Origin: Opitutales bacterium | GTDB lineage: Bacteria > Verrucomicrobiota > Verrucomicrobiia > Opitutales > JABSRG01 | Direction of reading: 5' to 3' | DNA: 64,000 bases | Assembly: GCA_028280845.1 (NCBI GenBank) | Contig: JANQKZ010000014.1 | Location: 60,672 to 124,671 of the forward strand | Shown: positions 3,652 through 35,341 of the stretch, in pieces | Numbering within the stretch: the stretch's first letter is position 1 | Layout of the letters: each line of letters starts with the position of its first letter | Notes under the pieces: model-generated | Database searches by the model: none | The model's input: only the letters and a program-made list of their open reading frames with translations | What the model was told of the DNA's origin: nothing | Position numbers and translations under genes: made by a program

Positions 3652-4674
3652 CTACGAGAAGTCGTCGACTTCGCGGTAGGCCTCGATGAGGCGTATTTCG
3701 CCGGCTTTCCCTTTTTCCATGATGCCATGCTCCATGCCGACGATGCCGGTGAAGCCTTTTTCGTGCATGACCTTGAAGATGTTTTTGTAGTTGATCTCCC
3801 CTGTGGTGGGCTCTTTACGGCCTGGATTGTCGCCGACCTGGAAGTAGGGGGTTTCGTCCCAGCAATCGAGCATGTTGGGGATGAGGTTTCCGACGGAGAT
3901 CTGTTGGTGATAGAGATCGTTTAAGATCTTGCAGGAGGGGCTGTTGACCATTTTGCAGACGACGTAGGCATCCTGGACCCGCTCGAGGAAGAGGTTGGGG
4001 TGGTTGTAGAAGTTGAGGGGTTCGAGGACCATAACGAGGCCATGGGGTTCGAACATCCCGGCCATGTATTTCAGGTGATCGACAACGTTGAGCAATTGGT
4101 ATTCCCGGTCGAGGGAGGCGTCGATGGCGCCGGGGACGACAGTCATCCACTTGGCGTTGCAGCGTTTGGCGGTTTCGATGGCCCGTTCGCAGTGGGCTTT
4201 CAGCATGGCGCGGACACCCTCCTGGTCCCGTTCGTTTCTCCGGGGGGCAGGGGAAACAGTCCGGGTGGAGACCACGCCGTTTTCTTCGACCAGCTGAATA
4301 TCGAGGACATTGCCGGACAGTGCTCTGCTGCCGAAGGCACCGATACCGAAGGCGACGAAGACGCCCATTTCCATGCCGAGCTGATCCAACTTTTTGGAGA
4401 TGCGTTTCTGTTCGTCGAGTGGACGAAGCATCATACGATTATCCTCGAGTGCACGGAAGCCGTTATCGTAGAAGAACTGGAGTTCATCCTCGAAGTTGCC
4501 TCTTCCAACATGTTCCTTCCCCATTCCGAAATGGGGGGCATACTTGAGTTTAAACGGAGATTTAGACATGGGGCTATTAGCGGTTTCGTGTTGAGCGGCT
4601 TGGGCAGTTCCGGCAGCAACGGTGCCGAGTGCTCCTGCAGCCAGGGTAGCTTTATTGAATTCGCGACGATTCAT
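3652..4674 (-). CDS. Tat-exported xylose-isomerase-like TIM-barrel protein (hydroxypyruvate isomerase / sugar phosphate isomerase family)
   Basis: 340 aa. Twin-arginine leader is MNRREFNKATLAAGALGTVAAGTAQA. The remainder resembles the AP-endonuclease-2 / sugar isomerase TIM-barrel family. Confidence 0.7.
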   Translation of the reverse strand: MNRREFNKATLAAGALGTVAAGTAQAAQHETANSPMSKSPFKLKYAPHFGMGKEHVGRGNFEDELQFFYDNGFRALEDNRMMLRPLDEQKRISKKLDQLGMEMGVFVAFGIGAFGSRALSGNVLDIQLVEENGVVSTRTVSPAPRRNERDQEGVRAMLKAHCERAIETAKRCNAKWMTVVPGAIDASLDREYQLLNVVDHLKYMAGMFEPHGLVMVLEPLNFYNHPNLFLERVQDAYVVCKMVNSPSCKILNDLYHQQISVGNLIPNMLDCWDETPYFQVGDNPGRKEPTTGEINYKNIFKVMHEKGFTGIVGMEHGIMEKGKAGEIRLIEAYREVDDFS

Positions 4675-4853
4675 AGGCAGTTAGTGTGAAAGGCTTTTCG
4701 ATAGCTGAAAAGGAAATTGAGGCTCGCCAATTTGATGTTAAGGTCAGACGTTGAGGGTTGCTAACAAACTAAGCCCTAGACCACGTGTTCCACCCATTAA
4801 CAGTTCAGCGCAGCTGTCAATCCTCCCATTCCCGGTTAAGGGGGGCCTTGGCT

Positions 4854-5195
4854 ATGCTGTTGGCGTTGAGTTTGGTGTTGGTTTCTTTCGCGGCGTATAG
4901 CCCAGGCCTTCACGGTTGGCTGCACGGAGACCCGTCGGAGGCTGTGGCCTGCCAGGGCTATCACCATCATCATCACGCTTGTACTCACGGGGAGTCGGGG
5001 GAAGGGCCTGTTGGAGAAGAGGAGCCCCATATCTGCGGGGTGGTGCAATTGATGAATGGTGGGATGTTGTTATTTATCTTCGTTTTTTTCATTTCTATCG
5101 GACTGCTCTTCATTTTGCAGGAGCTGATCGTTAGTGCGAGTAGTGGGGCTGTTGTTCGGATAAGGGGGGCACGGGCTCCACCTGGTTTGGGTTAA
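4854..5195 (+). CDS. hypothetical His/Cys-rich small membrane protein (putative metal-binding)
   Basis: ORF 4785..5195 starts at GTG. The ATG at 4854 gives an N-terminal hydrophobic segment, then SPGLHGWLHGD, YHHHHHACTH and HICGVV, then a second TM segment. It lies immediately upstream of the TonB-dependent receptor. Confidence 0.5.
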   Translation: MLLALSLVLVSFAAYSPGLHGWLHGDPSEAVACQGYHHHHHACTHGESGEGPVGEEEPHICGVVQLMNGGMLLFIFVFFISIGLLFILQELIVSASSGAVVRIRGARAPPGLG

Positions 5196-5295
5196 GTGAA
5201 CCGAATTGAAATGCAGTCGTTCCTCCACTCGGAAAGGCCGCACCACTCTTGCATCATGCCCAGGTGTCCTGGGCGTGCCTTAACCTTAACCACTC

Positions 5296-7449
5296 ATGAA
5301 TTTATACAAACTCGCCTTTGGGCTTATATTTTTTATCTTACCCCTGGCTCTCTTTAGCCAGGACCCCTATACGCCGGTGGAGGACCTGGACCCCATGGTC
5401 GTCACCGGCAACGTTGCTCCGACGAAAAGTAGTGAAGTCATCTCCCCGGTTACCATTCTGACCGGCGATGACTTGGTTCGTATTCGGTCTAACTCGCTGG
5501 GAGAAACCTTGAATGGATCGCTTGGCATTCATGGAACCGCCTTTGGGGCCGGGGCCAGCCGCCCGGTGATCCGCGGCTTTGAAGGTCCCCGGGTTCGCAT
5601 CCTGGAAAGTGGTGTAGAAAGTATGGATGTTTCGGATACCAGTCCGGATCACGCCGTTAGCCTCGAACCCTTTTTTACCGAATCTATTGAAGTGGTCCGT
5701 GGGCCCTCCACGCTTCTTTATGGGAGTTCTGCCGTGGGAGGGGTCGTCAACCTGATCGATAACCGGATCCCGCGGGATAACTCCATTGCACCGGTCAGCG
5801 GTGGAGTCGAAGGACGCTATCATACGGTTTCCGAAGGGTATGACATGATGGGCCGATTCAATTATACCGAGCCCAACTGGGCGATTGGAATTACCGGCTT
5901 AACCCGGGACCACAAGGATTATGACATCCCCGGTTTTGCGGAATCCGTTTACCAGATGGAGGCTGAAGAGGCGGAGCACGATGAAGATGAAGACCATGAT
6001 GAAGGGGAAGAGCATGAACATGAAGCGGAGGAAGAGGTGTTCGGAACTCTCGAAAATAGCTTCGTTAAGACCGAAACCAGCTCGGTGGCCTTCTCCTGGT
6101 TTCCCTCCGAAGGCCAGCAAGTCAGCCTGGGCTATTTCATGATGGACTCTCAATACGGCGTGCCTGGTCACGCGCATCACCACCATGAAGATGAGCATGG
6201 TGACGAAGATCATGATGAGGGTGAGCACGATGAGGATGAAGACCATCACGATGAGGACGAGCATGGTGACGAGGAGGAAGAAATGGTGACCATCGACCTC
6301 GAGCAGCGGAAATGGGATGTCGAGGGCGCCTTCACATTTTCCGAAGGTTTTCTGGAAACGGTAAATTTCCGTTTTGCCCATTCCGACTACATCCACACCG
6401 AGTTCGAGGGAGATGAAGAGGGGACGGTGTTCGAACGCACGGGCTGGGAAGCCCGCCTGGAGGCCGGCCACCGCTTTTCGGAAACTGTGCGCGGGGTAGC
6501 CGGTATCCAATATATCGACTCGGACTTCAGCGCGGAAGGATTTGAGGCCTTCGTCCCGCCATCTGAGACAAGGGACTTCGGTATTTTTGTCTTGGAGGAA
6601 TGGACCCTGGGCGACTTTCGTCCTCAAGCCGGTATCCGTTGGGAGCAGCGGGATATCACTGCCAATACGGGCCAGGAATATGATGGCTCGGCCCTGAGCT
6701 ATTCCCTGGGAACCTTTATTCCCCTGGGGAGTTATTGGAACGCTGGGGTGACCTTTGCGCGGTCGGAGCGCCATCCTACGGCGACTGAGCTCTTTGCGGA
6801 TGGCCCTCATGCGGCGACCCGGCAATATGAGATTGGTGATCCCAACCTCGGGAAGGAAAAATCCAACGGGGTCGACGCCGTTCTCCGTCACTTGGGAGAG
6901 GTGTTTTCGGGACAGGTATCTGTCTTTTACAACCAGTTTGAAGACTACATCAATCTGGCACCTACCGGAGGTGAAGAAGACGAGCTGCCGGTATTTCAAT
7001 TCGAAGCGGTCGACGCCCGGTTTTACGGGGCAGAAGTTCAGGCTACCTGGCATGCGTATCACTCGCCGGAAAGCAGTCTGGACTTCACAGCCCTCTTTGA
7101 CATGACCCGGGCGGAGAATACGACCGATGATGTCGACCTCCCCAAGATTCCGCCCGCTCGACTGGGCGCGCGGGGCCGGTATTCCGTCGGTGGCTTTACC
7201 GTCGGGACCACCTTGCGCTACTCATTCGAGCAGGAAGACCTGGCGCCCTTTGAATTACCTACGGATGCCTTCACGGAATGGAATGCCGATATTGGTTACA
7301 GCTTTATCTGGGATGGTGCGCAAATGACGGCGTTCATTCGGGCAGACAATATCCTTGATGAGGAAATTCGTTTCCATACGTCGGCGATCAAAGACCTGGC
7401 TCCGCGACCGGGAAGGAATTTCAGCTTTGGATTTAGCGCGCAATTTTAG
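5296..7449 (+). CDS. TonB-dependent outer-membrane receptor with His/Asp/Glu-rich inserts (ZnuD-like metal receptor candidate)
   Basis: 717 aa with a signal peptide. The plug region is DPMVVTG...VEVVRGPSTLLYGSSAVGGVVNLI, and the C-terminal beta-strand ends in ...FSFGFSAQF. Inserts are EAEEAEHDEDEDHDEGEEHEHEAEEE (5956..6039) and HAHHHHEDEHGDEDHDEGEHDEDEDHHDEDEHGDEEEE (6169..6282). Confidence 0.9.
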   Translation: MNLYKLAFGLIFFILPLALFSQDPYTPVEDLDPMVVTGNVAPTKSSEVISPVTILTGDDLVRIRSNSLGETLNGSLGIHGTAFGAGASRPVIRGFEGPRVRILESGVESMDVSDTSPDHAVSLEPFFTESIEVVRGPSTLLYGSSAVGGVVNLIDNRIPRDNSIAPVSGGVEGRYHTVSEGYDMMGRFNYTEPNWAIGITGLTRDHKDYDIPGFAESVYQMEAEEAEHDEDEDHDEGEEHEHEAEEEVFGTLENSFVKTETSSVAFSWFPSEGQQVSLGYFMMDSQYGVPGHAHHHHEDEHGDEDHDEGEHDEDEDHHDEDEHGDEEEEMVTIDLEQRKWDVEGAFTFSEGFLETVNFRFAHSDYIHTEFEGDEEGTVFERTGWEARLEAGHRFSETVRGVAGIQYIDSDFSAEGFEAFVPPSETRDFGIFVLEEWTLGDFRPQAGIRWEQRDITANTGQEYDGSALSYSLGTFIPLGSYWNAGVTFARSERHPTATELFADGPHAATRQYEIGDPNLGKEKSNGVDAVLRHLGEVFSGQVSVFYNQFEDYINLAPTGGEEDELPVFQFEAVDARFYGAEVQATWHAYHSPESSLDFTALFDMTRAENTTDDVDLPKIPPARLGARGRYSVGGFTVGTTLRYSFEQEDLAPFELPTDAFTEWNADIGYSFIWDGAQMTAFIRADNILDEEIRFHTSAIKDLAPRPGRNFSFGFSAQF

Positions 7450-7958: not shown

Positions 7959-9224
7959 TTATGGGGAGAGGTAGGGGATGACCATGGGGCCTTCGGGGAG
8001 GACAGCTATGGGGGCGTGTTTTCCTAATTTCTGGACTTCGACTTGGACGGTGGTCTGGAGATCGGCCACGTATTGCATAGCAGCGCGTTCAACATCTTCC
8101 CGCGAGAGTTCACTGTAGAGGCTGACTCTGGCCTGGAGAAGAACCATGGCAAATTGCTGAATCTGCCATTGATCGAGAAAAGGGGAAGGGGCATTAAAGA
8201 CCGAATCCATCATAGATTGCGGTGATTCATTTTCGAAGATGACCCGCTTAAAGTTACCATGGTCGGGAAATCCATCGGAGCAGGCAGCAGCGGAGATGAT
8301 ATGGCCTCCCTCTTCGACAATGTGGAGGGCCGCGGTGAGTCCTTTAACGGTTTGGTAGAGGTTTTGGTCAAGGGGGAATCCGCTATTGGTCGTCAGGATC
8401 AGGGGAAAGGGCCCAGGGCAAGGAAACATGGCTGATTCTTTTGCAAATCGGCATCCGGCTGCATGGGCGGCAAGGACATCGCCGAAGAAAAACCCGGTGA
8501 TCGCTTTCTGGCGGTTCAGCGTCACATTAATGAGGAAATCGACCGGGAGCAGGGAGCCATTGGCTCGCACCTGGTCCTGTGTTGGATTGCCTACCAGGTT
8601 GCCCCAGGTGCTATGGGGATCGGCCACGACGGCGGGGCGATGGTAATGCATGATGGAGTCCAGATCGGCGATAGCAGGAAAGACCCCCTTATAACCCCCG
8701 GAGAACCCAGCCCAGAAGTGGGGTTCGATGAAGCCGAGGACGAGCCGCTTATCGGCTTCGACATAGTGGGTATTGTAGGCCACCGGATTGCCGTCCGGAT
8801 CGTGGCCGACCGGGGTCATGCTATCAGGGTCGCCGGCGTCGTGATTGACGACGGCGAAACGGTCATAGATGGCGTCTCCCAGCATGTTTCGGAGTTCCGG
8901 TTCGGTATTGGCGCGGTGGGTCCCGGTGCCGTTGATAATGGTGAATTGCTCATCGCGGACATGGTTCAGATACTCGAATAGCCAGGGGAGTACGCGCCGA
9001 AGAGGAAAGGCACGAGTTATGTCAGGAATCACGATGGCGACCCGGTCGCTGGGGCGAATGAGCTCGCGCAGGGGGGGAGATTGGTAGGGTTGCTCAAAGG
9101 CCTCGAGGCACGCCTGGTGTTCGTCGGGAACGCCAGGAACCTGTTTGGGTTCGATCAGGGTGACATTGTGGGAAGGGATTTCGATGCGGAGGTCAGTCCG
9201 GCCGTATTGGAGGAAGGTGTTCAC
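7959..9224 (-). CDS. larA: LarA-family nickel-pincer-dependent 2-hydroxyacid racemase/epimerase homolog (DUF2088)
   Basis: 421 aa, GTG start. The N-terminus YGRTDLRIEIPSHNVTLIEP...DRVAIVIPDITR and the motif INGTGTHRANT are typical of lactate racemase-like proteins. Confidence 0.75.
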   Translation of the reverse strand: MNTFLQYGRTDLRIEIPSHNVTLIEPKQVPGVPDEHQACLEAFEQPYQSPPLRELIRPSDRVAIVIPDITRAFPLRRVLPWLFEYLNHVRDEQFTIINGTGTHRANTEPELRNMLGDAIYDRFAVVNHDAGDPDSMTPVGHDPDGNPVAYNTHYVEADKRLVLGFIEPHFWAGFSGGYKGVFPAIADLDSIMHYHRPAVVADPHSTWGNLVGNPTQDQVRANGSLLPVDFLINVTLNRQKAITGFFFGDVLAAHAAGCRFAKESAMFPCPGPFPLILTTNSGFPLDQNLYQTVKGLTAALHIVEEGGHIISAAACSDGFPDHGNFKRVIFENESPQSMMDSVFNAPSPFLDQWQIQQFAMVLLQARVSLYSELSREDVERAAMQYVADLQTTVQVEVQKLGKHAPIAVLPEGPMVIPYLSP

Positions 9225-9422: not shown

Positions 9423-10103
9423 TTAAGATTTTTGGATGGGGAGGTCTTTAAGGATGGGTTCACGGTTGAGCTTGCTTTTCAGACGGGCCAGCATGATGAG
9501 GAGGAGTTCGGCGGTGGCAAGAGTGTCTCCCTCGGCGGTGTGGCGGTTTTCAATAGGGAGGTTGACGTGGGCGCAGACTTCGTCGAGGGAAGGCGGGCGT
9601 TGATTGCCGTATCCGGTTTTTCGGAAAGCATCTAAGGTGCGCATGGCGAGGTGGGCCGTATCGAGGATCGGATTCCGGAGATGAACCTGAAAGTGGCGTT
9701 GCATGGCCTGGTTGAGCATTCGGATATCAAACTGGATGTGGTGCCCGACAATGATGGTGTTCGTGATATCGGGGATGAGGGATTGGAGGACTTCCAGCTC
9801 AGGAGTTCCCTGGTCGATTTCCGTAGAGAGCAGTCCATGAATGGCGGGCGATTCTTTGAGGTCGAGGGAGGGGTGGAAGATGACGTGGCTACGGGCGGTG
9901 TTGAGGTATAGCTTGTAATCACTGACTTTCACCCAGGCGAGGGAGACCATGCGGTCGTGTTGGAGGTCGAAGCCCGTGGTTTCAGAGTCCAACACGATGA
10001 AGGAGGAGTCCTGGATCAGGCGGGTGCGGGTCCATGACCGGAAAGTGTGCGCCAGGTAGTGGGCGAGGGGAGCGGGCGGCTCCTTTTTTTTCCACCAGAT
10101 CAT
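9423..10103 (-). CDS. DEDDh 3'-5' exonuclease (DnaQ / Pol III epsilon-like)
   Basis: Exo motifs are FIVLDSETTG (ExoI), VGHHIQFDIRML (ExoII) and HTAEGDTLATAELL (ExoIII, H-x4-D). The ATG at 10103 lies 2 nt after the upstream gene's TGA. The track ORF extends to a TTG at 10130. Confidence 0.85.
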   Translation of the reverse strand: MIWWKKKEPPAPLAHYLAHTFRSWTRTRLIQDSSFIVLDSETTGFDLQHDRMVSLAWVKVSDYKLYLNTARSHVIFHPSLDLKESPAIHGLLSTEIDQGTPELEVLQSLIPDITNTIIVGHHIQFDIRMLNQAMQRHFQVHLRNPILDTAHLAMRTLDAFRKTGYGNQRPPSLDEVCAHVNLPIENRHTAEGDTLATAELLLIMLARLKSKLNREPILKDLPIQKS

Positions 10104-10105
10104 GG

Positions 10106-12067
10106 TCAAGCGGGGCGCTGTTCCAGACAAAACTCTGCGCGAAGACTGGTCTGGAGGAGGCGTTGGATGTCGAAGGCATTGGCCAGTTGGGCGCGTTCGA
10201 GTTTGGACAGATTTTCGGGGTTGATGAAGCGTCCTGAATCTTTTTGAGCGAAACCATTTACAGTGCGCAAGCGCATGAGTAACTCATAAGCTTCCCGGCC
10301 GTAGGCCGCCACTTCGCTCAAACTTTGGGCTCTGGCTCCAATCTCATCCAGGCGGTTTCCGGTGGAGTAGTAGTGGGTTATTCGATACTTGAACGAAAGG
10401 ACCCGGGCCGCGTCACGTATGGGGCTCATCCCCCTTGCCTTAATATCAAATCGCCCCTCTTGGATTCCTTTCTTTTCGACGATGAATTTGCCCCAGAAGT
10501 TGAGTGGTGGAGGGGATTCCACGGCGTATTCGGCCATTTTACGAAGCAAGGTGGGCTGCTTATCCACATGATCAAAAATGAGGGTGCGCAAGTCGGATGC
10601 GAGCTCTGGGTGACCCGCCACGAAACGCATATCAAAGAGGGTGATCCCTCGCAGCATGGCAACTCCGTCGGAAAAGCCGGTTAAGGCCCGGATTTCCTCT
10701 TCCCATTCAAGGGTGGATCGGCACCAGCGAGGATTGGAGGCCATAACGCCTCCCTGACAACGCGAAAAGCCGGCATCGACAAGGCGTTGGACGACTTTAT
10801 TCGTGAGGCGGAGAAAGGCTTGGCGAAGGGTTTCATCGCTTTCGGCATCTCCAGTCGATTGGAAGATGAATCCATTATCCATGTCGGTTCGTAAAATCTG
10901 CTCGCGGCGGCCATCGCTGCCGACCGCAATCCAAGCCCAGGGATGGTCGGGAACGGGTTGGTGTTCCTTCTCCAATTCAAGGATCGTCAACTCGATAAGC
11001 CGCTCGACCATGGCGTCGTAAAATTCCGCGCAAATCTGTCCCATGAAGATAGAAGAGGCCCCTGCTTTTAAATAGCCGTAAACGAGGTGCTCGATATCAT
11101 CGGCCATCTCCTTGAAGCGGGCGGGCGAGCGTGCCAAACGGATTTCCCGGAGGAGGCCAGCGGGATGGTGGCCGCTTTGGGTGAGCAGGTCCTTGTGGGT
11201 TACGACGTCAAGCGCTGGTGAATTCGGTGTGCCATCCTCGGTGATACAAATCTGGCCAATCCGTTGGCGAAGCATGAGAAGGATGGCCGTGGTAGCGCTT
11301 TCATCTGGGCCGATGGTGTGGACCGGTGTCGCCATGTGCTGGGATACCGGATCGCTCTTAGGGTGGTCATCGACGATGATCCGTTTGATGAGCGCGCTCC
11401 CGCTGAGGATTCCCAAGGGGTGGCGATCTTGGTTAACGACGAGGATGGAGGGTACCCGCTTGGTTGACATGAGCGTGGCCGCTTCTTCGATATTGGCTTC
11501 CGGGGAACAGGTGAGCAGGCGATTGAGGGGCCGCATTTCGATCTTTCGGGCGCCGACCAGGTGAGCTTCGAGAATATTGGACTCCGGTCTTGCTATTGAG
11601 GCTTTCGTGCTTGGGAGGGTTACATTGCCCCCAACGCGAGTAGCCCAGAAGAGATGCCGGCGAACGTAGTGGCGAGCGGCATCGTTGGCCTCCAACAAGG
11701 GCTGCAGGATATTCCAGGGGAGGGCGTAGACCAGGCTCTCCTCCACAACATGAGCCGTGACCCGGTAGGGTTCTCCTTCAATAAAGGCGGTGAGGCCGAG
11801 GACATCTCCCTCGTCGCGGACGCCGACCATTTCCTCGCGGTCATCGACTTTCCAGATATATTCTACTCGACCGCGGGCGAGGAAGCCGACTTCGTTGCGA
11901 GGGTTTTCTCCCTGAGTCCACACGGTATCGTCCCTCGCATAAATGCGAATGATGACCTGCGCGGCAAGTTGCTCGACCTCGGTGGCTCCGAGCATGGAGA
12001 AGGGAGGATACTGCAACAACGCCCGGGCTACCCGCTTGGGAATTTGATTGGTCGAGGAAGCGTTCAC
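10106..12067 (-). CDS. cNMP-binding + tandem CBS + DUF294 nucleotidyltransferase signal-transduction protein
   Basis: 653 aa. N-terminal cyclic-nucleotide-binding fold, a central CBS pair, the NTase signature AVGSDGRREQILRTDMDNG (G-S...D-x-D), and a C-terminal DUF294_C-like helical region. Confidence 0.8.
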   Translation of the reverse strand: MNASSTNQIPKRVARALLQYPPFSMLGATEVEQLAAQVIIRIYARDDTVWTQGENPRNEVGFLARGRVEYIWKVDDREEMVGVRDEGDVLGLTAFIEGEPYRVTAHVVEESLVYALPWNILQPLLEANDAARHYVRRHLFWATRVGGNVTLPSTKASIARPESNILEAHLVGARKIEMRPLNRLLTCSPEANIEEAATLMSTKRVPSILVVNQDRHPLGILSGSALIKRIIVDDHPKSDPVSQHMATPVHTIGPDESATTAILLMLRQRIGQICITEDGTPNSPALDVVTHKDLLTQSGHHPAGLLREIRLARSPARFKEMADDIEHLVYGYLKAGASSIFMGQICAEFYDAMVERLIELTILELEKEHQPVPDHPWAWIAVGSDGRREQILRTDMDNGFIFQSTGDAESDETLRQAFLRLTNKVVQRLVDAGFSRCQGGVMASNPRWCRSTLEWEEEIRALTGFSDGVAMLRGITLFDMRFVAGHPELASDLRTLIFDHVDKQPTLLRKMAEYAVESPPPLNFWGKFIVEKKGIQEGRFDIKARGMSPIRDAARVLSFKYRITHYYSTGNRLDEIGARAQSLSEVAAYGREAYELLMRLRTVNGFAQKDSGRFINPENLSKLERAQLANAFDIQRLLQTSLRAEFCLEQRPA

Positions 12068-12229: not shown

Positions 12230-13336
12230 CTAGTGGGCATGGGCCAATTCGTACATGTTGGCGGCCATTTTGGTTGTTTCGACCCAGGCTCGCCAGGTGG
12301 CGTGGAGTTCCTGGCGGAGGCGGCGGATCTCGATTTTGATCAATCGCTTCTGTTCCGCGGTGGCTCGTTTCAGTTCCGCATATTTCCGGGTGAGCATGGA
12401 GGCCTTGGAGTCGAAGGCGTGGGCCAATTCCTCGAGTTTCCGCTTCAGCTCCGTGGCCGTTTCATCGAGTTCCTGACTCAGATGATCAAAGATGAGCTTT
12501 TTATCTTTGTTCACGAGAATCTTTTGCAGGCGGATTTTGTCCACAGTGCGGAGGTTGGAGGTCAGGCCAATCTTGGATGCCATCCAGATAATCCACTTGG
12601 AGGGATCAAAGTGATACCAGCGAATGCCATTGCGGAAGTCGTTGGCAAAGGCGTGGTGGTAGTTGTGGTAGCCTTCGCCAAAGGTGAGCAGAGCCATGAT
12701 GGCATTGTCGACAGCGGTTAATTCCTTGGCATAGGTTTTGGAGCCCCAGGTATGCGCGAGGGAGTTGATGAACCAGGTGCTGTGGTGAATTGCGAAGACC
12801 CGCAGCACAAAGGTGGAGTAAAAGGCAGCCAGCGGATCCATGAAGAGGCAGCCGAAGAGGAATATCCCGATATTGATGACGAGCGTCAGGGCCAGAAAAT
12901 GTTTGTGCTGAAACATGACCCGGGGGTTTTGCAGGAGGTCACTTACCTGGGATTCATCCATTTCCCGTTTGTAATCAAACAACCATCCCATGTGGGCGTA
13001 GAAGAAGCCCCGGTTGATGTTGTAGGGGTCCTTGTCTGTATCGACGTGTTTGTGGTGCATGCGGTGGTCGTAGGACCAGGCCAGCGCAGACCACTGAAGG
13101 GACAGGGTAGAGGCCAGGAGGGTAATCCATTCGAAGACCGGTTGGGCATTGTAGGTCTTATGGGAAAAGAGCCGGTGATAGCCCACGGTGATGGCCAAAC
13201 CGCCAATGCAATAGGTCAGAAGGAAGGCGACGGCAGCCTGCCAGGAAAAGACAGAGATGAATGCAGGAAGGAGCGCCACTACCAGGACGTGGTAAATGGC
13301 GATGAAAGCAAAGGTATCCCAATTTTTAATACGCAT
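12230..13336 (-). CDS. acyl-CoA/acyl-lipid delta-9 fatty acid desaturase with a C-terminal coiled-coil extension
   Basis: Histidine boxes are HRLFSH, HRMHHKH and HNYHH. The likely ATG is at 13336 (MRIKNWDTF...); the track ORF extends to 13405. The last ~100 aa are heptad-like and rich in K/E/L/R. Confidence 0.85.
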   Translation of the reverse strand: MRIKNWDTFAFIAIYHVLVVALLPAFISVFSWQAAVAFLLTYCIGGLAITVGYHRLFSHKTYNAQPVFEWITLLASTLSLQWSALAWSYDHRMHHKHVDTDKDPYNINRGFFYAHMGWLFDYKREMDESQVSDLLQNPRVMFQHKHFLALTLVINIGIFLFGCLFMDPLAAFYSTFVLRVFAIHHSTWFINSLAHTWGSKTYAKELTAVDNAIMALLTFGEGYHNYHHAFANDFRNGIRWYHFDPSKWIIWMASKIGLTSNLRTVDKIRLQKILVNKDKKLIFDHLSQELDETATELKRKLEELAHAFDSKASMLTRKYAELKRATAEQKRLIKIEIRRLRQELHATWRAWVETTKMAANMYELAHAH

Positions 13337-13443
13337 AGGAAAAAAAATAGTAGTACAGCCTCTAATTCGCGGCACCACCATCGGGGCAAAGCCCGGCAGT
13401 TTCAATAGCAGATTTGGAAAAAATGAAAGGGATCCAAGCGGGG

Positions 13444-17694: not shown

Positions 17695-17712
17695 TTGTAG
17701 CCTATGCTACAA
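17695..17712. promoter_or_regulatory. candidate DtxR/MntR-type operator: palindrome TTGTAGC-CTAT-GCTACAA
   Basis: 7-bp perfect inverted arms with a 4-nt spacer, about 25 nt upstream of the likely lipoprotein start (17737) of the metal ABC operon. Further inverted repeats are ATGCTAGCAT (17565..17574) and CCATGTGTG/CACACATGG (17609..17617 / 17656..17664). Confidence 0.45.
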
Positions 17713-17736
17713 TTGTGGACTGGGCGACGACCAAAT

Positions 17737-18744
17737 ATGAGGAGTAGACAGCGGAGGGTGATCCCTGGGCTGGCGATGCTGGCAGTGGCGGTTTTCGCGG
17801 GCTGCGGACCAAAGGCCCCCGAGGATTCAAGACAGGGCGAGTATCGTGTGGCGACGACGGTGGGCATGATCACGGATGTGGTGAAAGTCATAGCGGGAGA
17901 CCGGGCGGAGGTGCGCGGAATCATTGGTGAAGGGGTGGATCCTCACTTGTATAAGCCGACCCGAGGGGATGTGGTGATCCTGAATGAGGCGGACATAATT
18001 TTTTATAACGGGTTGATGCTGGAGGGGAAGATGGCAGACGTCCTGGTAAAAATGGCGACGCAGGGGAAGCCGGTCCAAGCGGTAACGGAGGTGATCCTGG
18101 CAGGAGGCGACTATGTCATGGTGGATGAGAGTGAGCACTACGATCCCCACGTGTGGATGGATGTGGGCGGGTGGATGCGAGCGGTGCCGATTGTGGTGGA
18201 GGCTCTGTCGGACTTTGATCCGGAAGGCCGGTCGGGCTACGAGGAACGGGGGCAGTCTTACCTGGACTCTCTCAAAGCGCTGGACGCTTATGCCCGGGCC
18301 AGTTTTTCCAGTATACCCGAGGAACAACGGGTGTTGATCACGGCTCACGATGCCTTCAATTACCTGGGGCGGGCTTATGGAATCGAGGTGCGGGGGATTC
18401 AGGGGATCAGCACGGAATCGGAAGCCGGGGTTCGCGATATTGAAACCCTGATCCGATTTATCGTGAAGCAGAATATTCCGGCGGTGTTTGTGGAGACCTC
18501 GGTCGCTGACAAAAATGTGCGAGCCCTCGTGGAGGGGGCGGCGGCGCAAGGGCATACGATCCGGGTGGGTGGGTCTTTGTTTTCGGATGCGATGGGCGCG
18601 CCGGGCAGCTATGAAGGCACCTACATAGGCATGCTCGACCACAACATTACGACGATCACCCGGGCCTTGGGGGGGACGGCTCCTGCTGGCGGGTTTCAAG
18701 GGAAATTAAGCGCCGGTTCCCCGGCTGGGAGGGGTGCCCAGTGA
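17737..18744 (+). CDS. metal (Mn/Fe/Zn) ABC transporter substrate-binding lipoprotein, cluster A-I (TroA/MntC/YtgA-like)
   Basis: The ATG at 17737 gives MRSRQRRVIPGLAMLAVAVFAGC, which contains a lipobox. Conserved motifs are DPHLYKP and DPHVWMD. The track ORF starts at 17704. Confidence 0.85.
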   Translation: MRSRQRRVIPGLAMLAVAVFAGCGPKAPEDSRQGEYRVATTVGMITDVVKVIAGDRAEVRGIIGEGVDPHLYKPTRGDVVILNEADIIFYNGLMLEGKMADVLVKMATQGKPVQAVTEVILAGGDYVMVDESEHYDPHVWMDVGGWMRAVPIVVEALSDFDPEGRSGYEERGQSYLDSLKALDAYARASFSSIPEEQRVLITAHDAFNYLGRAYGIEVRGIQGISTESEAGVRDIETLIRFIVKQNIPAVFVETSVADKNVRALVEGAAAQGHTIRVGGSLFSDAMGAPGSYEGTYIGMLDHNITTITRALGGTAPAGGFQGKLSAGSPAGRGAQ

Positions 18745-19549: not shown

Positions 19550-20926
19550 ATGGATTGGGAGCAGATCATAAGCGTATTATTTCTGCGGGATTACAACACC
19601 CGGCTGGTGGTTTTCTCTACCTTGTTGCTCGGTGTGACATGTGGAATCATGGGCGGATTTCTGCTCCTGAGAAAACGTTCATTGATGGGGGATACCTTAT
19701 CCCATGCCACCCTGCCCGGGATCGTGGGCCTATTCCTGGCCGGAGTCTTTCTGGGAAATGATGGAAAGTCCTTCATGCTGCTTCTGGTCGGTGCTGCAGT
19801 TACCGGTCTCCTGGGGTGTTGGCTTGTGCTCTTTATCCGCGAACATACCCGGTTGAAAGATGACGCGGCGATGGGCATTGTGTTGAGCGTATTTTTCGGG
19901 GCCGGGGTGGCATTGCTCGGCATGGCACAGACGCTGCCGGAAGGAAGTGCGGCGGGGCTGGAGTCCTTTATCTATGGGAAGACGGCTTCGATGGTAGCGA
20001 CTGACTTTCAAATCCTGGTGGTGGTGTCGCTGCTGGTATTGGGTATCTCCATCCTCCTGTTTAAGGAATTCAAGCTGCTCTGTTTTGACGAAACCTTTGC
20101 GCGGTCGCTGGGCTTCTCCACACGATGGCTCGACGTGTTGATGTTGGGACTGGTCACGGCCGTGACCGTGGCGGGGCTTCAGGCGGTGGGATTGATCCTC
20201 ATCATCGCCTTCTTGATTACACCGGCAGCGGCAGCTCGTTTCTGGACGGAGAAACTGGAGAGGATGTTAATCCTTTCGTCTATTCTAGGCGGGCTGAGTG
20301 GCTGGATCGGTGCAAGTCTGAGCGCCTTGTTGCCGCGCATGCCTGCGGGGGCGGTCATTGTCCTGGTGGCCGCGGGCTTCTTTGTCTTCAGCATGTTGTT
20401 CGGGACGGCACGCGGGGTGCTCCTGCGGTATCGCCAGCATCGGGAGCTCCGGTTCCTCGTCAGTCGCCAGCACTTGCTCCGGGCTCTTTTTGAAATTCTG
20501 GAAGGGCAGCAGTCCGGTGTGGATGAACTGGAGGTGACGCCAGTTCCCTATGAGGAGGTTCGGATTACGCGAACGTGGACGGATCGGGCGTTGAACAAAA
20601 CCCTGGCTCATGCCTTCCGGGATGGCCTGGTCAAAACCCGACCTACGGACGACACGATCCTCCTTTCCTCCCGCGGGCTTGAAGAGGCGGCAAAGGTGAC
20701 TCGAAACCACCGGCTGTGGGAATTGTATTTGATCGAGTTTGCTGATATTGCTACCAGCCGGGTAGACCGGGGTGCCGATCGGGTGGAGCATGTCCTGGGC
20801 GAGGAGTTGGTGCAGGCCCTGGAGGCCAAGCTGCAGACTTATCGCTGGGATGAGCAAGTCCTTGTTCCGGCCAGTCCCCACCCAATTGCGGGAGGGGTTG
20901 CCCCCTCAACGGAGGCCACTCCATGA
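19550..20926 (+). CDS. ABC-3 metal transporter permease fused to a C-terminal DtxR-like repressor domain (YtgC-YtgR-type)
   Basis: 458 aa. The first ~290 aa are a polytopic ABC-3 permease. The C-terminal ~150 aa contain ...TRNHRLWELYLIEFADIATSRVDRGADRVEHVLGEELVQALEAKL, which matches the DtxR dimerisation/metal-binding helix pattern (RKHRLAERLL...HDEACRWEHV). Confidence 0.8.
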   Translation: MDWEQIISVLFLRDYNTRLVVFSTLLLGVTCGIMGGFLLLRKRSLMGDTLSHATLPGIVGLFLAGVFLGNDGKSFMLLLVGAAVTGLLGCWLVLFIREHTRLKDDAAMGIVLSVFFGAGVALLGMAQTLPEGSAAGLESFIYGKTASMVATDFQILVVVSLLVLGISILLFKEFKLLCFDETFARSLGFSTRWLDVLMLGLVTAVTVAGLQAVGLILIIAFLITPAAAARFWTEKLERMLILSSILGGLSGWIGASLSALLPRMPAGAVIVLVAAGFFVFSMLFGTARGVLLRYRQHRELRFLVSRQHLLRALFEILEGQQSGVDELEVTPVPYEEVRITRTWTDRALNKTLAHAFRDGLVKTRPTDDTILLSSRGLEEAAKVTRNHRLWELYLIEFADIATSRVDRGADRVEHVLGEELVQALEAKLQTYRWDEQVLVPASPHPIAGGVAPSTEATP

Positions 20927-29968: not shown

Positions 29969-31927
29969 ATGGCTATCTTAGATATCATCCTATTCGTAGG
30001 ATCAGTTCTCGGTGTGATTGTCCTCGGCATTGTCATGAGCCGAGGTGAAGAATTAGAAAGCGATCATGGGGCCAGTGATTATTTCCTGGCCGGCCGTGGA
30101 TTAACCTGGTGGCTCGTCGGGTTCTCCTTGATCGCGGCGAATATTTCGACCGAACAGTTTGTCGGGATGTCCGGAAAGGCGGCAGATTGGTTGGGGATGG
30201 CGATTGCCAGTTATGAGTGGATGGCAGCTATCACGCTGGTGGTGGTCGCGTTTGTCTTTCTTCCCAAATTGTTGAAGACAGGGATCTATACGATTCCTGA
30301 GTTTTTAGAGTACCGGTATGGTCTGCTATCTCGGGCCGTTATGGCGATTGCCACCTTGATTATCCTGGTTGGGGTGCCTACGGCGTCGGTGATTTTTTCG
30401 GGGGCCAAAGTGGTCAGTGTGGCGTTTCCAGACACCCCTGTCCTTGGGAGCTTGACCGCGATGTGCTGGATCATCGGAATCTTGGCTGCGACCTACGTGT
30501 TTGTGGGCGGGTTGAAAGCCTGTGCATGGACGGACCTGGTTTGGGGATCTGCCCTCATTGTCGGTGGGGCCATCATCGCGTATCTCGCCTTTCAGGAACT
30601 GGGGTCCCGTCCCGCAGAAGAATTGATTCTGACCAAAGTCGCGACTTCTGAAGCGACGGTGGCTGATTTGGAAGCGGCCGGGGGGTTTGAGCGCTTCAAG
30701 CTCCTCAACCAGGGAGAAGCGATGGACGGCCCGAATGGAAGTGGAGGCAAACTCCATATGAAGCGATCGAAGCAGGATCCCGAAATCCCATGGACGGCCC
30801 TGGTCCTCGGCCTCTGGATTCCCAACTTTTTCTACTGGGGGTTGAACCAGTATATTGTGCAACGGACCCTGGGGTCCAAGTCCCTGGCTGAAGGCCAAAA
30901 GGGAGTTGTCTTTGCGGCATTCCTCAAGCTGATCATTCCCTTTGTGGTGGTGATTCCAGGTATCTTGGCCTTTAACCTGTTTAGCGGCGATTTAAAGACC
31001 GAGGCGGATCGAAAGAACGCCGTGGTGATTGCAGACTTTGAGACTTCTCCCGAGAAGGTGTTCCCCTTCAGCCCCGAATTTGCGACGGTCAACCCGGAGA
31101 TGGCGCGCAGAATGTATGACCACAACCGGGCTCAGCTGGGGCCAGTCATGACGATGGAGTGGACCCCGGATGAATTTCTCGCCGAACGCAACGCCGGCGT
31201 GATTGCGGAAGCGTCATCAAAGAACATTCCTTCGACCACACCTGTGGTTGGATATGACTACGATGCTGCTTTCGGAACGCTGCTGAAAAATCTGCTCTTT
31301 CCCGGCATTCGGTGGTTTGTGTTTGCGGCCATTACCGGGGCTGTGATCAGCTCACTAGCCTCCATGCTCAACTCAGCCTCCACCATCGCGACGATGGATG
31401 TATATAACAAGTTGAGGAAGAATGCCTCGCAGCTCGAGTTGGTCAAGGCCGGACGCGGCTTTGTGGTCGCCTTTGTCCTGATTGCCTCGATCATTGCACC
31501 TACCCTGGGGAGCCCGGTCTTCTCCGGGATCTTTACCTTTATCCAGGAATTCCAAGGGTTTATCAGCCCTGGTATCCTAGCGGTGTTCCTGTTCGGCTTC
31601 CTGGTCCCCAAGGCCCCAAAATACCTCGGATGGGTTGGTATCCTGGCTAATGTTATATTGTATGGCTTTTTCAAATGGATCGGCGGACCTCTACTGGTTG
31701 AGAACGGGCTTTGGTTTTCTTCCGAAATGGCCTTCCTGGACCGGATGGGTGTCTGCTTTATCATTGTCCTGATTATATGCGGAGTGGCGACCCTCGTGAA
31801 TCCGCTGAAGGAACCGGTGAAGATGCCTGTGAATGAGCAGATGGATGTGACGCCATCCAAGACCGCCTTTTATGGCGGGATTGGGGTGGTGGCGTGTACC
31901 GTCGTCCTCTACGCCATCTTCTGGTAG
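29969..31927 (+). CDS. sodium:solute symporter (SSS/SGLT family)
   Basis: 652 aa polytopic protein. DYFLAGRGLTWWLVGFSLIAANISTEQFVGMSG is the canonical SSS N-terminal pattern. Confidence 0.9.
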   Translation: MAILDIILFVGSVLGVIVLGIVMSRGEELESDHGASDYFLAGRGLTWWLVGFSLIAANISTEQFVGMSGKAADWLGMAIASYEWMAAITLVVVAFVFLPKLLKTGIYTIPEFLEYRYGLLSRAVMAIATLIILVGVPTASVIFSGAKVVSVAFPDTPVLGSLTAMCWIIGILAATYVFVGGLKACAWTDLVWGSALIVGGAIIAYLAFQELGSRPAEELILTKVATSEATVADLEAAGGFERFKLLNQGEAMDGPNGSGGKLHMKRSKQDPEIPWTALVLGLWIPNFFYWGLNQYIVQRTLGSKSLAEGQKGVVFAAFLKLIIPFVVVIPGILAFNLFSGDLKTEADRKNAVVIADFETSPEKVFPFSPEFATVNPEMARRMYDHNRAQLGPVMTMEWTPDEFLAERNAGVIAEASSKNIPSTTPVVGYDYDAAFGTLLKNLLFPGIRWFVFAAITGAVISSLASMLNSASTIATMDVYNKLRKNASQLELVKAGRGFVVAFVLIASIIAPTLGSPVFSGIFTFIQEFQGFISPGILAVFLFGFLVPKAPKYLGWVGILANVILYGFFKWIGGPLLVENGLWFSSEMAFLDRMGVCFIIVLIICGVATLVNPLKEPVKMPVNEQMDVTPSKTAFYGGIGVVACTVVLYAIFW

Positions 31928-32072
31928 CGGAAAGGTCTGGACGGTTGAAGGCTTTCCGGGGTCGGCCTCAGCTCCAACGTATAAGAACCAGCTTATGGAG
32001 GTGGGAACCCCGGCTTCCTTTTTTAGAGGGGCTCTGGTTTGGGCTTTTCTTGTACTATGGGAGTTTGATTGT

Positions 32073-33803
32073 ATGTCGACCGCTATGGAAATTCTAATCA
32101 ATCATCTGGGTTACCGGTCAGCCTGTCCGAAGGTCGCGATTCTTCAGGCGTGGGAGCCCTTTGAGGGGGCTCCGGTAGTGGAACTGGTGGAGGTCTCGAC
32201 CAGTGAGGTGGTCCTGGAAATGGAGGGAGCAGGCAATCAGCCGGTGGATGGTTGGACGGGTCGATGGTTTTCGTCGGTCGACTTTTCCCAGGTGGATTCG
32301 CCAGGGACCTATTACCTGGTAAGTGGCGATCATCGGTCGCCTGCTTTTGAGATTCAGGAGACGGCGGCTTTGCTGGAGGAACCGCTTTCCGATATTCTGC
32401 ACTATTTCAAGTCGCAACGCAGCGGAGGGGTGTATGACCGGCATGACCGGAAATGCCCCATTTATGGAGAGGACCGAAGCGTGGATGTACATGGGGGGTG
32501 GTATGACGCCTCCGGGGACGTGAGCAAATATCTGAGTCACCTCTCCTACGCCAACTATCTCAACCCACAGCAGACACCTATGGTGGTCTGGAATTTCCTC
32601 AAGGCTTACACCCTGTTAGCGGCTAATGGAAGGGTGTCGGATTATACCCTGGAACGTATCCTGGACGAGGCCACCCATGGCGGGGATTTTCTTGTCCGTA
32701 TGCAGGATGAAGCAGGGTTCTTCTACATGATTGTTTTTGATGTCTGGAGTAAGGATGTGAGTCAGCGGGATATCTGTTCCTACGCGACCCAGGCGGGCCA
32801 TAAATCGAATCAATATCAGGCCGGTTTTCGGCAGGGGGGCGGGTTGGCTATCGCTGCGCTGGCCGCGCTATCTCGTTTCCCCAGTCATGGGGATTACCCG
32901 GCCTCCACTTACTGGGAGTGTGCAGAGAAGGGATATCTTCACTTAAAGGAACACAACGAAGCTTACCTGGATGATGGCAAAGCCAACATCATCGATACAT
33001 ATTGTGCGCTCCTCGCCTCGGTTGAGCTGACGAAGGCGGCGAAGAACCCGGACCAGCAGTCCTTTTACCTGGAGGAGGCCCGGGTGTGGGCCTCCGAGCT
33101 CATGTCTTATCTGCACGAGCATCCGGATTATGGGGTATTGTGGATGGCTAATTCTGAGGGCACCCGACCCTATTTCCATGCGACGGAAGCCGGGCTTCCC
33201 GTTCTCGCCCTGATGGAATACCTTTCCGTTGAACCTGATGCTGAACGGAGAGGCCCTATCTCAGTGGCCTGCAAACGGTCTATTCAGGCCGAAGTGTCCA
33301 TGACACAAGCGGTTTGGAACCCCTTTGGATATGCCCGACAGGTGACGCAGTCCCTAAGCGGGGTGCGTCAGGCGGCGTTCTTTGTCCCGCATGCCAACGA
33401 GAGTGGCTATTGGTGGCAGGGGGAAAATGCGCGGCTGGCGTCCCTGGTTTCCATGGGCATGCTAGCGATAGGCACGCTGCGCCTTGATCCGGCTACGGCG
33501 GTAGAAATCCAGCGATATAGCACGCAGCTATTGGATTGGATTTTTGGTCTCAACCCATTCGATACCTGTATGCTGGATGGGCATGGGCGCAATAATCCAA
33601 GCTATTGGCCAGAGGCCGGATACTACAACGCCAAGGGAGGAGTCTGTAACGGGATCACATCCGGGTTTGAAGATGAGCAGGATATCGCCTTCAAGCCGGA
33701 ACCTCATGACAAGGATCCGATGCAGAATTGGAGGTGGGGGGAGCAGTGGATTCCCCATGCGGGGTGGTTGTTCCTGGCGATCGTGGCGTGGGAGCTTAAG
33801 TAG
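32073..33803 (+). CDS. GH9-like glycoside hydrolase with N-terminal Ig-like domain, no signal peptide
   Basis: The ATG at 32073 (MSTAMEILINHLGY...) avoids overlap with the SSS gene; the track ORF starts at 31872. HYFKSQRSG and HGGWYDASGDVSKY resemble the GH9 QRSG / GGWYDAGD blocks. Confidence 0.7.
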   Translation: MSTAMEILINHLGYRSACPKVAILQAWEPFEGAPVVELVEVSTSEVVLEMEGAGNQPVDGWTGRWFSSVDFSQVDSPGTYYLVSGDHRSPAFEIQETAALLEEPLSDILHYFKSQRSGGVYDRHDRKCPIYGEDRSVDVHGGWYDASGDVSKYLSHLSYANYLNPQQTPMVVWNFLKAYTLLAANGRVSDYTLERILDEATHGGDFLVRMQDEAGFFYMIVFDVWSKDVSQRDICSYATQAGHKSNQYQAGFRQGGGLAIAALAALSRFPSHGDYPASTYWECAEKGYLHLKEHNEAYLDDGKANIIDTYCALLASVELTKAAKNPDQQSFYLEEARVWASELMSYLHEHPDYGVLWMANSEGTRPYFHATEAGLPVLALMEYLSVEPDAERRGPISVACKRSIQAEVSMTQAVWNPFGYARQVTQSLSGVRQAAFFVPHANESGYWWQGENARLASLVSMGMLAIGTLRLDPATAVEIQRYSTQLLDWIFGLNPFDTCMLDGHGRNNPSYWPEAGYYNAKGGVCNGITSGFEDEQDIAFKPEPHDKDPMQNWRWGEQWIPHAGWLFLAIVAWELK

Positions 33804-33856
33804 GAAATCAGAAATCAGAAATCGGAAATCAGAAATCGGAAGTCGGTGGTCGGAGG
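33802..33856 (+). repeat. heptanucleotide array (locus C, ~8 units; TCAGAAA grading into TCGGAGG)
   Basis: aggaaa tcagaaa tcagaaa tcggaaa tcagaaa tcggaag tcggtgg tcggagg. Starts inside the GH9-like stop codon, in a convergent intergenic region. Confidence 0.85.
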
Positions 33857-33973
33857 ATCTCCGCTTCCGTTGTCGTTACGTCGTGCCGAGACAAGTCGCT
33901 CCGTGATGCTGGTGGCCTGGAGCGTTGTCGTGATAACGGCGGCTAGCGCCCGGAGCACATTTTTGTTCTCATA

Positions 33974-35341
33974 TCAACCATTCATGAGGTACCCCTCTCG
34001 ATAGGGTTTAGTGAGGAAAGCATTGGCGGATTCCAGATTCGTTACGAGACCATTGGCGCCGTCATAGGTGAGGGTGGGCCGTTCGCCCATTTCTCCTTCG
34101 CCTTCACCGGCGCGGAAGCCGACGAGGCCGAGGCACATGGTTTCGATCATATCCGCACTGTATTTAAAGTTACAGGCAGTGTTCATGGGGTCGCCATTTC
34201 TGCAAGCGGCGGTCCATTGCTTCTGGAAGTGCTCCAAGGGGGGCTCCAGCTCGTCTTCGGATGGGGGATCGAAATAGGTCAGGTCGGCCTGTGCACCGTA
34301 GGGATAAAGAATGCGATTGCGAAAATCGGCAATGATGAAGCCACGATCTCCCTTGAACCATGCTCCATGGCCGATGGCATTGAGGTTGACCCAGTCGAGG
34401 GGGGATTCGGGCATGGCGCCGCCCTGATACCAAGTGACCCGGATATCTTCGCGCCAGTCATTGGCGGGGAAGATATAACTGGCTGACATGTTGACCGGGG
34501 TCACATCCCGGTTGAGGGATTCGGGAGAGGCGACAGAGATGCTGGTGGGGAGCTCGGCGTCGATGACATTCCAGACGAGGTCCATGGTATGGCTGCCCAT
34601 ATCCCCGATCTGGCCGACACCCCAGTCCCAATACATATTCCACTGAAGGCAGTTCAGCCCGACCTTGCCCTTAACGTACTCGGGGTGGAATGGACGATAG
34701 GGGGAGGGTCCGAGCCAGAGGTCCCAGTTTAGTGTATCCGGAGGTTGGATACCGGCGAGATAGCCGGGTTTAGGGATTTGCCGGTTACCCCAGACAGCTA
34801 CATCTCTCAAGTCGCCGATGGCGCCCCCATGAATCATTTCCCGCAAGCGGCTGAAGTTGGGATGGGCATGGCGCTGCATGCCGACCTGGGTGGCCAGCTT
34901 GTCCTTCTTCTTCATGTAGGTTTCCCGAACGATGCGAGATTCTTCGACAGTGATGGCAAGGGGCTTCTCCATAAAGCAATGGAGGTCGCGATTGAGGGAC
35001 CAGTTGGCGATGAAGGCGTGGTGATGATCCGGGGTGCAACAGAGGACAGCATCGAGGCCCGGATGGTCCAGGGCCTTGCGCCAGTCTTCGTAGACTTTGG
35101 CCTTGGGGAATTCCTTCACTGCGTAAGGCAGGTTCTTCTGATTGACTTCACAGATGGCGACCACATTTTCGTCGTGCAATGTGGCGTAATGCGCCTTGGC
35201 CCGGCCATAAGCGCCGATTAAGGCGATATTGAGCTTATTGTTGGGGCGATTCTTTCCGAACAGGGTCCCGGTAGGAAGAATCATGAGCCCAGCACCGGTA
35301 GCACTGGCACGTTTGATGAGTTGTCGACGGGTAATAGCCAT
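33974..35341 (-). CDS. Tat-exported Gfo/Idh/MocA-family oxidoreductase
   Basis: 455 aa. Twin-arginine leader is [23 protein letters not shown]. Rossmann region is [14 protein letters not shown]. Confidence 0.85.

Follow-up and report, generated by a model that had tools for sequence, protein, structure and literature searches.

The stretch of DNA analysed here, hereafter the window, is a 64,000-nucleotide (nt) piece of an Opitutales bacterium genome, and on its minus strand lie the two adjacent genes that are the subject of this analysis. The upstream gene encodes a nucleotidyltransferase (NTase) that carries sensor domains, and the downstream gene encodes a 3'-5' exonuclease of the DEDDh type. 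The locus is almost certainly a verrucomicrobial copy of the COG2905 module, in which a cNMP/CBS/DUF294 protein is paired with a DnaQ-like exonuclease. Domains were assigned by Pfam, and all four NTase domains score above their gathering thresholds. The features of the pair are listed below, with domain limits in amino acids (aa).

10106..12067, minus: sensor nucleotidyltransferase gene, 653 aa, GTG start, TGA stop at 10106-10108
11687..11947, minus: cNMP_binding domain, a sensor resembling cyclic-nucleotide-binding (CNB) domains, aa 41-127 (Pfam 4.8e-12)
11174..11536, minus: CBS pair (Bateman module), about aa 178-298, in two stretches (Pfam 1.6e-15, predicted secondary structure)
10685..11098, minus: DUF294 polymerase-beta-type NTase domain, aa 324-461 (Pfam 3.9e-38)
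10877..10927, minus: catalytic motif AVGSDGRREQILRTDMD, aa 381-397
10130..10552, minus: DUF294_C helical 'substrate-binding' domain (KNTase_C/HEPN clan), aa 506-646 (Pfam 3.7e-27)
10101..10108, minus: gene junction TGA-CC-ATG, 2-nt spacer
9423..10103, minus: DEDDh 3'-5' exonuclease gene, 226 aa, ATG at 10101-10103, stop at 9423-9425
9999..10103, minus: family-specific N-terminal extension of the exonuclease, aa 1-35

An earlier note on this DNA had described a 653-aa protein with a cyclic-nucleotide-binding domain, a CBS pair and a DUF294 domain, an intact G-S...D-x-D motif, a 2-nt separation between the TGA of this gene and the next ATG, and a complete DEDDh exonuclease. All of these points were borne out. 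The Pfam domains are recovered in the order given, the motif and the spacer lie where the list places them, and the exonuclease matches RNase_T (3.2e-19) with all five catalytic residues in place. The coding strand reads GCT TGA CC ATG ATC across the junction, where no obvious Shine-Dalgarno sequence was seen, and the two genes are likely to be translationally coupled by termination-reinitiation. The exonuclease start at the ATG at 10103 is backed by homologue alignments. A TTG start at 10130, taken from a mechanical list of open reading frames (ORFs), was rejected because the same alignments favour the ATG. The public gene model of the NTase has 629 aa and begins at Met25, 24 codons too late. 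Residues 1-24 (11996..12067, minus strand) are conserved in homologues, with N7, I9, R12, P21, P22 and F23 invariant, which identifies the longer frame, starting with the GTG at 12067, as the real one. The closest NTase homologues are found in Lentimonas (64%) and Opitutaceae (about 55%).

The catalytic motif of the NTase is spelled A-V-G-S-D-G-R-R-E-Q-I-L-R-T-D-M-D. Its conservation was counted in 45 diverse homologues of 24-54% identity. Within the motif, G383 and S384 are each kept in 43/45 sequences, R387 in 44/45 and E389 in all 45; the acidic residues D395 (41/45) and D397 (39/45) are followed downstream by an invariant D479 (45/45). K543, D552 and R555 of DUF294_C are conserved in the same alignment. 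Because the catalytic residues are conserved across these homologues, the module is read as a live enzyme. The AlphaFold2 (AF2) model of the protein has a mean pLDDT of 83.

The CNB domain of the sensor half matches the fold of CRP, GlxR and PKA-R domains in Foldseek searches, and its Pfam match confirms this part of the earlier assignment. The description as cyclic-nucleotide-binding needs correction at the pocket. The phosphate-binding cassette, taken as G-E-L...R-[ST]-A, has its Glu replaced by L92 and its Arg by Y101 when aligned to the CRP-family structure 2pqq; across the family, 30/45 members have Tyr at position 101 and 6/45 have Phe. Gating by cAMP or cGMP is therefore not assured; the pocket is non-canonical in sequence, and its ligand may be another molecule. 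The CBS pair looks ordinary, with CBS matches in the PDB at aa 173-280.

The partner is a DEDDh exonuclease that stands apart from the curated families. Its best NCBIfam match, PRK09145, is below cutoff, and it falls under the curated cutoffs of every NCBIfam exonuclease model. The catalytic residues D39, E41, D126, H188 and D193 are present as Exo I D-x-E, Exo II D and Exo III H-x4-D, and the pentad is invariant in 70-71 of 71 partner exonucleases. By these residues, the enzyme is catalytically intact. The AF2 model (pLDDT 90.6) is nearest in structure searches to the exonuclease domains of DinG, PolC, CRISPR-associated DnaQ, RNase T and epsilon. Since these nearest folds include DnaQ-type, DNA-acting enzymes as well as RNase T, the fold is silent on RNA versus DNA as substrate. 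The N-terminal extension lies outside the structural alignments with PolC and DinG. It contains a helix, predicted by AF2 at residues 11-19 with a pLDDT of about 91, and a tyrosine, Tyr16 (codon 10056-10058, minus strand), that is conserved in 70/71 partners. The corresponding P-x5-6-Y motif is also found in the partner exonucleases of Pseudomonas and Vibrio. Its conservation marks Tyr16 as a candidate site of modification or docking.

The family is of great size. When 1.84 billion cluster representatives were searched exhaustively with HMMER (E<=1e-30, clusters at 50% identity), at least 944 clusters of the four-domain NTase were recovered, most of them about 630-655 aa long with full-length matches and the same architecture. 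A genome scan with one genome per species found more than 591 relatives, and neighbourhoods were counted in the best 80 loci. The locus scan was driven by an alignment of 11 close homologues, as the alignment of 45 sequences had no sufficiently conserved stretch. The best 80 loci come from Verrucomicrobiota, Kiritimatiellota, Lentisphaerota, Chlorobiota, Bacteroidota, Leptospirales, Myxococcota and two metagenome-assembled genomes labelled Gemmatimonadota. The exonuclease was sought in the six-frame ORFs of these loci with the window exonuclease as query. Six of the 80 are uninformative, ending 523 nt or less from the NTase stop, which leaves 74.

The adjacency of the two genes, noted earlier for this window, extends well beyond close relatives, and the refuting condition set in the earlier note, an adjacency confined to close relatives, clearly does not hold. 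Of the 74 informative loci, which span about eight phyla, 71 have an exonuclease adjoining the NTase gene; annotated Proteobacteria carry the pair as well. It lies directly downstream on the same strand in 70 loci and directly upstream, with a 4-nt overlap, in one; three loci have none. Once the exonuclease starts had been refined, 33 of the 70 downstream pairs showed a start codon overlapping with the stop of the NTase gene (-4 in 22, -1 in 8 and -8 in 3), and the other gaps are mostly below 40 nt. A reciprocal search gave the same picture: three of three distant exonuclease homologues (29-41% identity), picked by exonuclease similarity alone, directly follow a cNMP/CBS/DUF294 gene. In Lentimonas the pair is retained with a 4-nt overlap while every other neighbour is different. 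No NTase-exonuclease fusion was found among the exonuclease homologues or among 150 family representatives. On these observations, the pairing is an ancient one, with each partner specific to the other. Two of the three loci that lack the exonuclease, both from Bacteroidota (L050, 8014..8748; L056, 8056..8811), have a 7TM-like DUF6962 membrane protein in its usual place, immediately after the NTase.

Annotated records of Pseudomonas, Vibrio and Ruegeria carry the pair at about 24% identity. In P. aeruginosa, the order is DUF485, cation/acetate symporter, cNMP/CBS protein and 3'-5' exonuclease. Vibrio cyclitrophicus has the DUF294 protein followed by the exonuclease, and Ruegeria TM1040 has DUF4212, an SSS symporter, the DUF294 protein, an unannotated 172-aa ORF and a 479-aa exonuclease. 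This alphaproteobacterial variant, with an extra ORF of 172-194 aa without a Pfam match after the NTase, was seen in two loci (L085, 7820..9780; L086, 7857..8441). The long Ruegeria exonuclease has a 270-aa N-terminal part of no known identity, and in Skermanella no exonuclease is annotated adjoining the NTase and the extra ORF. A DUF294-dnaQ operon in Bacilli was noted by a 2012 paper. Since papers and databases already contain the pair, its architecture is not new, and the present instance is an ordinary one.

Gene overlaps of this kind are also seen in toxin-antitoxin pairs. A mobile toxin-antitoxin or anti-phage module of the MNT-HEPN type could therefore be considered, as could a spare DnaQ proofreading subunit that stands beside a sensor by chance. 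The exonuclease does match generic DEDDh models in PADLOC, and its homologues are sometimes named 'DNA polymerase III subunit epsilon'. However, the NTase matches no PADLOC family, and a defence-system origin was rejected on that ground. Similarity follows taxonomy, with 50-64% within Verrucomicrobia and about 30% in other phyla, and the pair occurs once per locus. The Pseudomonas pair is regulated with carbon metabolism, DUF294_C lacks the R-x4-6-H motif of HEPN (PMC3710099), and the partner is an RNase_T/DEDDh protein. The adjacency is itself too conserved for chance. Both forms of this explanation are highly implausible.

The chemistry of the NTase can be approached through its relatives. 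In a Foldseek search of the NTase model against the PDB, the best matches of the catalytic half are DrrA (6yx5_B) and GlnE (1v4a, the N-terminal domain; 3k7d, the C-terminal adenylylation domain), with E values of about 1e-7 over 350-400 aligned columns that cover the NTase and the helical C-terminal domain. DrrA is the top structural match of the NTase module (E 2e-07, TM score 0.65 on the target), and the remaining matches of the model are to CNB and CBS domains. To our knowledge, the characterised members of the GlnD/GlnE/DrrA class all transfer AMP or UMP to a protein tyrosine. On the Pfam DUF294 model, E. coli GlnD reaches 26.3 bits, the threshold being 21. The program hhalign placed AVGSDGRREQILRTDMD on GlnD AVGGYGRGELHPLSDVD and FDMRFVAG (the F-D-x-R motif) on IESRLLIG of GlnD, with weak statistics for this alignment (probability 4.5%, E 0.009). 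A PDB profile search with the NTase module alone found no solved structure related by sequence, and the search with the full-length family was dominated by cNMP and CBS matches. The link to GlnE and DrrA therefore rests on the fold, on the match of GlnD to DUF294 and on the weak hhalign alignment. DUF294_C has been grouped with the C-terminal domains of GlnD and GlnE in the KNTase_C/HEPN clan (PMC3710099). Judged by sequence and predicted structure, the catalytic module is GlnD/GlnE/DrrA-like, of the protein-AMPylase type. GlnD proper was set aside as an identity, as E. coli GlnD has GlnD_UR_UTase, HD and ACT domains in Pfam and the window NTase has none of the three.

These relationships contradict the statement in the earlier note that the NTase is distinct from GlnD/GlnE-type enzymes, as GlnD exceeds the DUF294 threshold and DrrA and GlnE are the top folds. 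The comparison with CD-NTases, made in the same place, is unsupported. A CD-NTase/CBASS identity was rejected, as there is no PADLOC family for the NTase and the structural matches are GlnE and DrrA rather than cGAS and DncV. A related explanation is that the NTase makes a nucleotide second messenger, either a linear or a cyclic oligonucleotide, which the DEDDh enzyme degrades. Orn degrades pGpG, and the polymerase-beta fold is common to CD-NTases. The shared fold, the presence of Orn/REXO2-type DEDDh enzymes among the structural matches of the exonuclease, and the sensor domains that precede the catalytic module are consistent with such a cycle. Yet the NTase has no PADLOC or CD-NTase match, its fold is nearest GlnE and DrrA with a KNTase_C-clan helical domain, and no receptor or effector gene is conserved beside the pair. 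We consider a messenger cycle very improbable.

A polymerase-beta NTase that adjoins a 3'-5' exonuclease structurally similar to RNase T also brings RNA 3' ends to mind, in line with the action on a nucleic-acid 3' end suggested in the earlier note. The CCA-adding enzyme and RNase T act in this manner on tRNA. By analogy, the NTase would add nucleotides to an RNA 3' end and the exonuclease would remove them, setting the stability or activity of the transcript. The calculated isoelectric point (pI) of the C-terminal domain of the NTase (aa 500-653) is basic at 9.7, whereas the full-length protein is acidic at 6.2. The speculation of Price et al. about expression of the neighbouring symporter (bioRxiv 10.1101/072470) would fit a role in transcript stability. 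However, the nearest relatives of the NTase modify proteins and are neither CCA-adding enzymes nor poly(A) polymerases. Moreover, an Rfam scan of the window matched no family, and no other conserved non-coding element was found there. Promoter and terminator scans of the window stayed at chance level. Tailing and trimming of RNA therefore appears improbable, although less so than a messenger cycle.

The published genetics of the pair come from Proteobacteria. Price et al. found the COG2905 genes of Shewanella and P. stutzeri to be cofit with the DUF4212/SSS symporter beside them and speculated that symporter expression requires COG2905 (bioRxiv 10.1101/072470). PA3232-PA3235 of P. aeruginosa are co-induced on propionate. 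In P. putida, the pp_0354/pp_0353 operon is a target of MxtR/ErdR and is bound directly by ErdR. Neither pp_0354 nor pp_0353 is required on acetate (PMC9927547). On pyruvate, deletion of pp_0353, the exonuclease gene, impairs growth as deletion of actP-I does, and deletion of pp_0354, the NTase gene, does not (PMC9927547). On propionate, both deletions lower growth; the September 2026 preprint that reported this suggests protein modification and calls the function unclear (bioRxiv 10.64898/2026.09.07.749794).

The effects of the two deletions bear on the writer/eraser relationship that the earlier note had proposed. A simple antagonistic pair is a poor fit: growth on propionate falls in both P. 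putida deletion strains, and on pyruvate it is the exonuclease deletion alone that mimics ActP loss. In a version of this explanation that involves a third protein, the NTase would AMPylate or UMPylate a target such as a symporter, its small subunit or an acyl-CoA synthetase, and the DEDDh enzyme would remove the nucleotide, hydrolysis of the Tyr-O-P bond being chemically analogous to 3'-O-P cleavage. The class of the NTase argues for this version, as do the strict NTase-exonuclease pairing and the linkage of transporters and an AMP-binding enzyme to the pair in other phyla. We know of no DEDDh enzyme that acts on protein-nucleotide adducts, which counts against it. Each known AMPylase has a different eraser, and RNase Z is a deAMPylase for SelO (PMC12663964), a precedent in its favour. 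Nevertheless, opposite phenotypes would be expected of a writer and an eraser, and COG2905 is positively cofit with the symporter. No conserved third gene stands beside the pair in Verrucomicrobia. A writer and eraser of a third protein is unlikely.

Transporter linkage is restricted in its distribution. The sodium:solute symporter family SSF is the sole other recurrent neighbour of the pair, in 21/80 loci, and this linkage is seen in 0/26 loci of the PVC group versus 21/54 of the others. No SSS-type carboxylate symporter (ActP/DUF485 or SSS/DUF4212) is encoded within 8 kb of the window pair, and the only SSF gene of the window lies 18 kb from the pair, inside a GH9/sulfatase cluster. On two metagenome contigs (L088, 422..2056; L089, 24..1688 and 4641..6179), transport and activation genes flank the pair. 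One of these contigs has a BCCT transporter directly upstream of the pair; in the other, the pair is preceded by an SSF symporter and a small ORF and followed directly by an AMP-binding gene of the acyl-CoA-synthetase-like type.

We favour a model with the exonuclease as the output and the NTase as its ligand-gated controller, since the two deletions do not have opposite effects and loss of the exonuclease phenocopies loss of the transporter. The two proteins would be made together and act as one unit. The NTase would serve as the sensor, switching its partner by ligand-dependent nucleotidylylation, and the conserved Tyr16 in the N-terminal helix of the exonuclease would be the candidate site. 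The switched exonuclease would trim an RNA 3' end and thereby tune the expression of carboxylate uptake and assimilation functions, whose presumed genes adjoin the pair in many other phyla and not in this genome. One system with a similar logic is MntA-HepT, in which the NTase reportedly AMPylates a tyrosine of the partner RNase. The proposed logic resembles this system by analogy, but the pair would be a housekeeping regulator and not a toxin-antitoxin. Control of the exonuclease by nucleotidylylation, with Tyr16 as a possible site, is a tentative proposal that we put forward with less than even confidence. A wider claim would be that of a new post-translational switch that gates RNA processing for carboxylate transport and metabolism in many bacterial phyla. 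In such a switch, the NTase, sensing an adenosyl or other small ligand through its CBS and CNB-like domains, would nucleotidylylate the conserved N-terminal tyrosine of the exonuclease, or the exonuclease would be the first de-NMPylase of the DEDDh type. This wider claim is doubtful.

Several observations weigh against the favoured model. The nearest folds of the exonuclease include DNA-acting DnaQ-type domains (PolC, DinG, epsilon) alongside RNase T and do not single out RNA as the substrate. The helix that holds Tyr16 is predicted with confidence and packs on the core, and the residue may be simply structural or help to form an interaction surface. The mild Pseudomonas phenotypes belong to a relative of only about 24% identity. 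No transporter or acyl-CoA synthetase gene is linked to the pair in this window. Finally, no biochemical characterisation of any family member was found in the literature, so the earlier remark that the DUF294 family is biochemically uncharacterised still holds, in agreement with the 2026 preprint.

Three genes lie closest to the pair on its strand, two of them at the positions given here.

7959..9224, minus: LarA-like gene
12230..13405, minus: fatty-acid desaturase

The LarA-like gene, the desaturase and the third gene, of 390 aa, recur in 0/82 related loci (L001-L082). Other neighbours in the window encode a TonB-dependent receptor, sulfatases, an MscS channel and a ZnuA/ABC-3 cluster. The TonB-dependent receptor (5296..7449, plus strand) has two long His/Asp/Glu-rich inserts, for example HHHHEDEHGDEDHDEGEHDEDEDHHDEDEHGDEEEE. 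Nearby, at 17704..18744 and 19550..20926, lie genes for a binding protein of the ZnuA type and for an ABC-3 permease that carries, as a fusion, the C-terminal domain of an iron-dependent repressor. Together, the TonB receptor, ZnuA and ABC-3 genes look like a metal (Zn/Mn) uptake island. A polysaccharide-utilisation stretch at 29969..41147 contains the SSF transporter, two CelD_N-bearing GH9 enzymes, an oxidoreductase of the GFO/IDH/MocA type and two sulfatases, of which one has HEAT repeats. This stretch is typical of Opitutales and is unlinked to the pair.

In summary, the value of this locus lies in a question at the level of the family, which is very large, spans many phyla and has been annotated for more than two decades. 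Its Pseudomonas members belong to the acetate/short-chain fatty-acid regulon. The window adds nothing unusual to the family, and it shows that a self-contained pair can persist without a linked transporter. The question has been narrowed to a module of the protein-AMPylase type, a non-canonical cNMP pocket, an exonuclease that is always catalytically intact and a conserved N-terminal tyrosine. Should nucleotidylylation prove to be the means by which the NTase controls the exonuclease or works with it, protein AMPylation or UMPylation would be tied to RNA processing in central carbon metabolism.

Comparison with known systems places the pair most closely beside the proteobacterial COG2905 operons (PA3233-PA3232; PP_0354-PP_0353). 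The four-domain order and the P-x5-6-Y motif of the exonuclease are shared, as is a DEDDh exonuclease of 200-240 aa directly downstream, with codons that overlap or nearly do so. The differences are the identity of about 24% and the absence of actP/yjcH, DUF4212/SSS or glcB beside the window pair; MxtR/ErdR control is known there from P. putida. GlnD and GlnE share with the window NTase a polymerase-beta NTase domain with the pattern G-[SG]-x-G-R-x-E...[ST]-D-x-D and, behind it, a helical domain of the KNTase_C clan. Unlike in GlnD, the HD and ACT domains are replaced by CNB-like and CBS sensors, and the second NTase domain of GlnE is missing. The window NTase has a DEDDh exonuclease for its partner, with neither a PII nor a glutamine synthetase gene in linkage.

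DrrA/SidM of Legionella offers the closest fold for the NTase module and, conceptually, a separate eraser enzyme (SidD). In contrast, it is a secreted effector with guanine-nucleotide exchange factor and PI4P-binding domains, and its eraser has a phosphatase fold rather than a DEDDh fold. MntA-HepT resembles the pair in its overlapping adjacent genes and in the Pfam clan that HEPN shares with DUF294_C. It differs in that the window NTase is large and bears sensors, its partner is a DEDDh exonuclease instead of a HEPN RNase, and inheritance of the window pair looks vertical, with no match for the NTase in the defence database. The DnaQ-type exonucleases (Pol III epsilon, PolC, DinG and RNase T) have the same fold and the same catalytic pentad as the partner enzyme, whereas the window family is set apart by an N-terminal extension of 35 residues that bears a conserved Tyr and by its dedication to pairing with DUF294 proteins.

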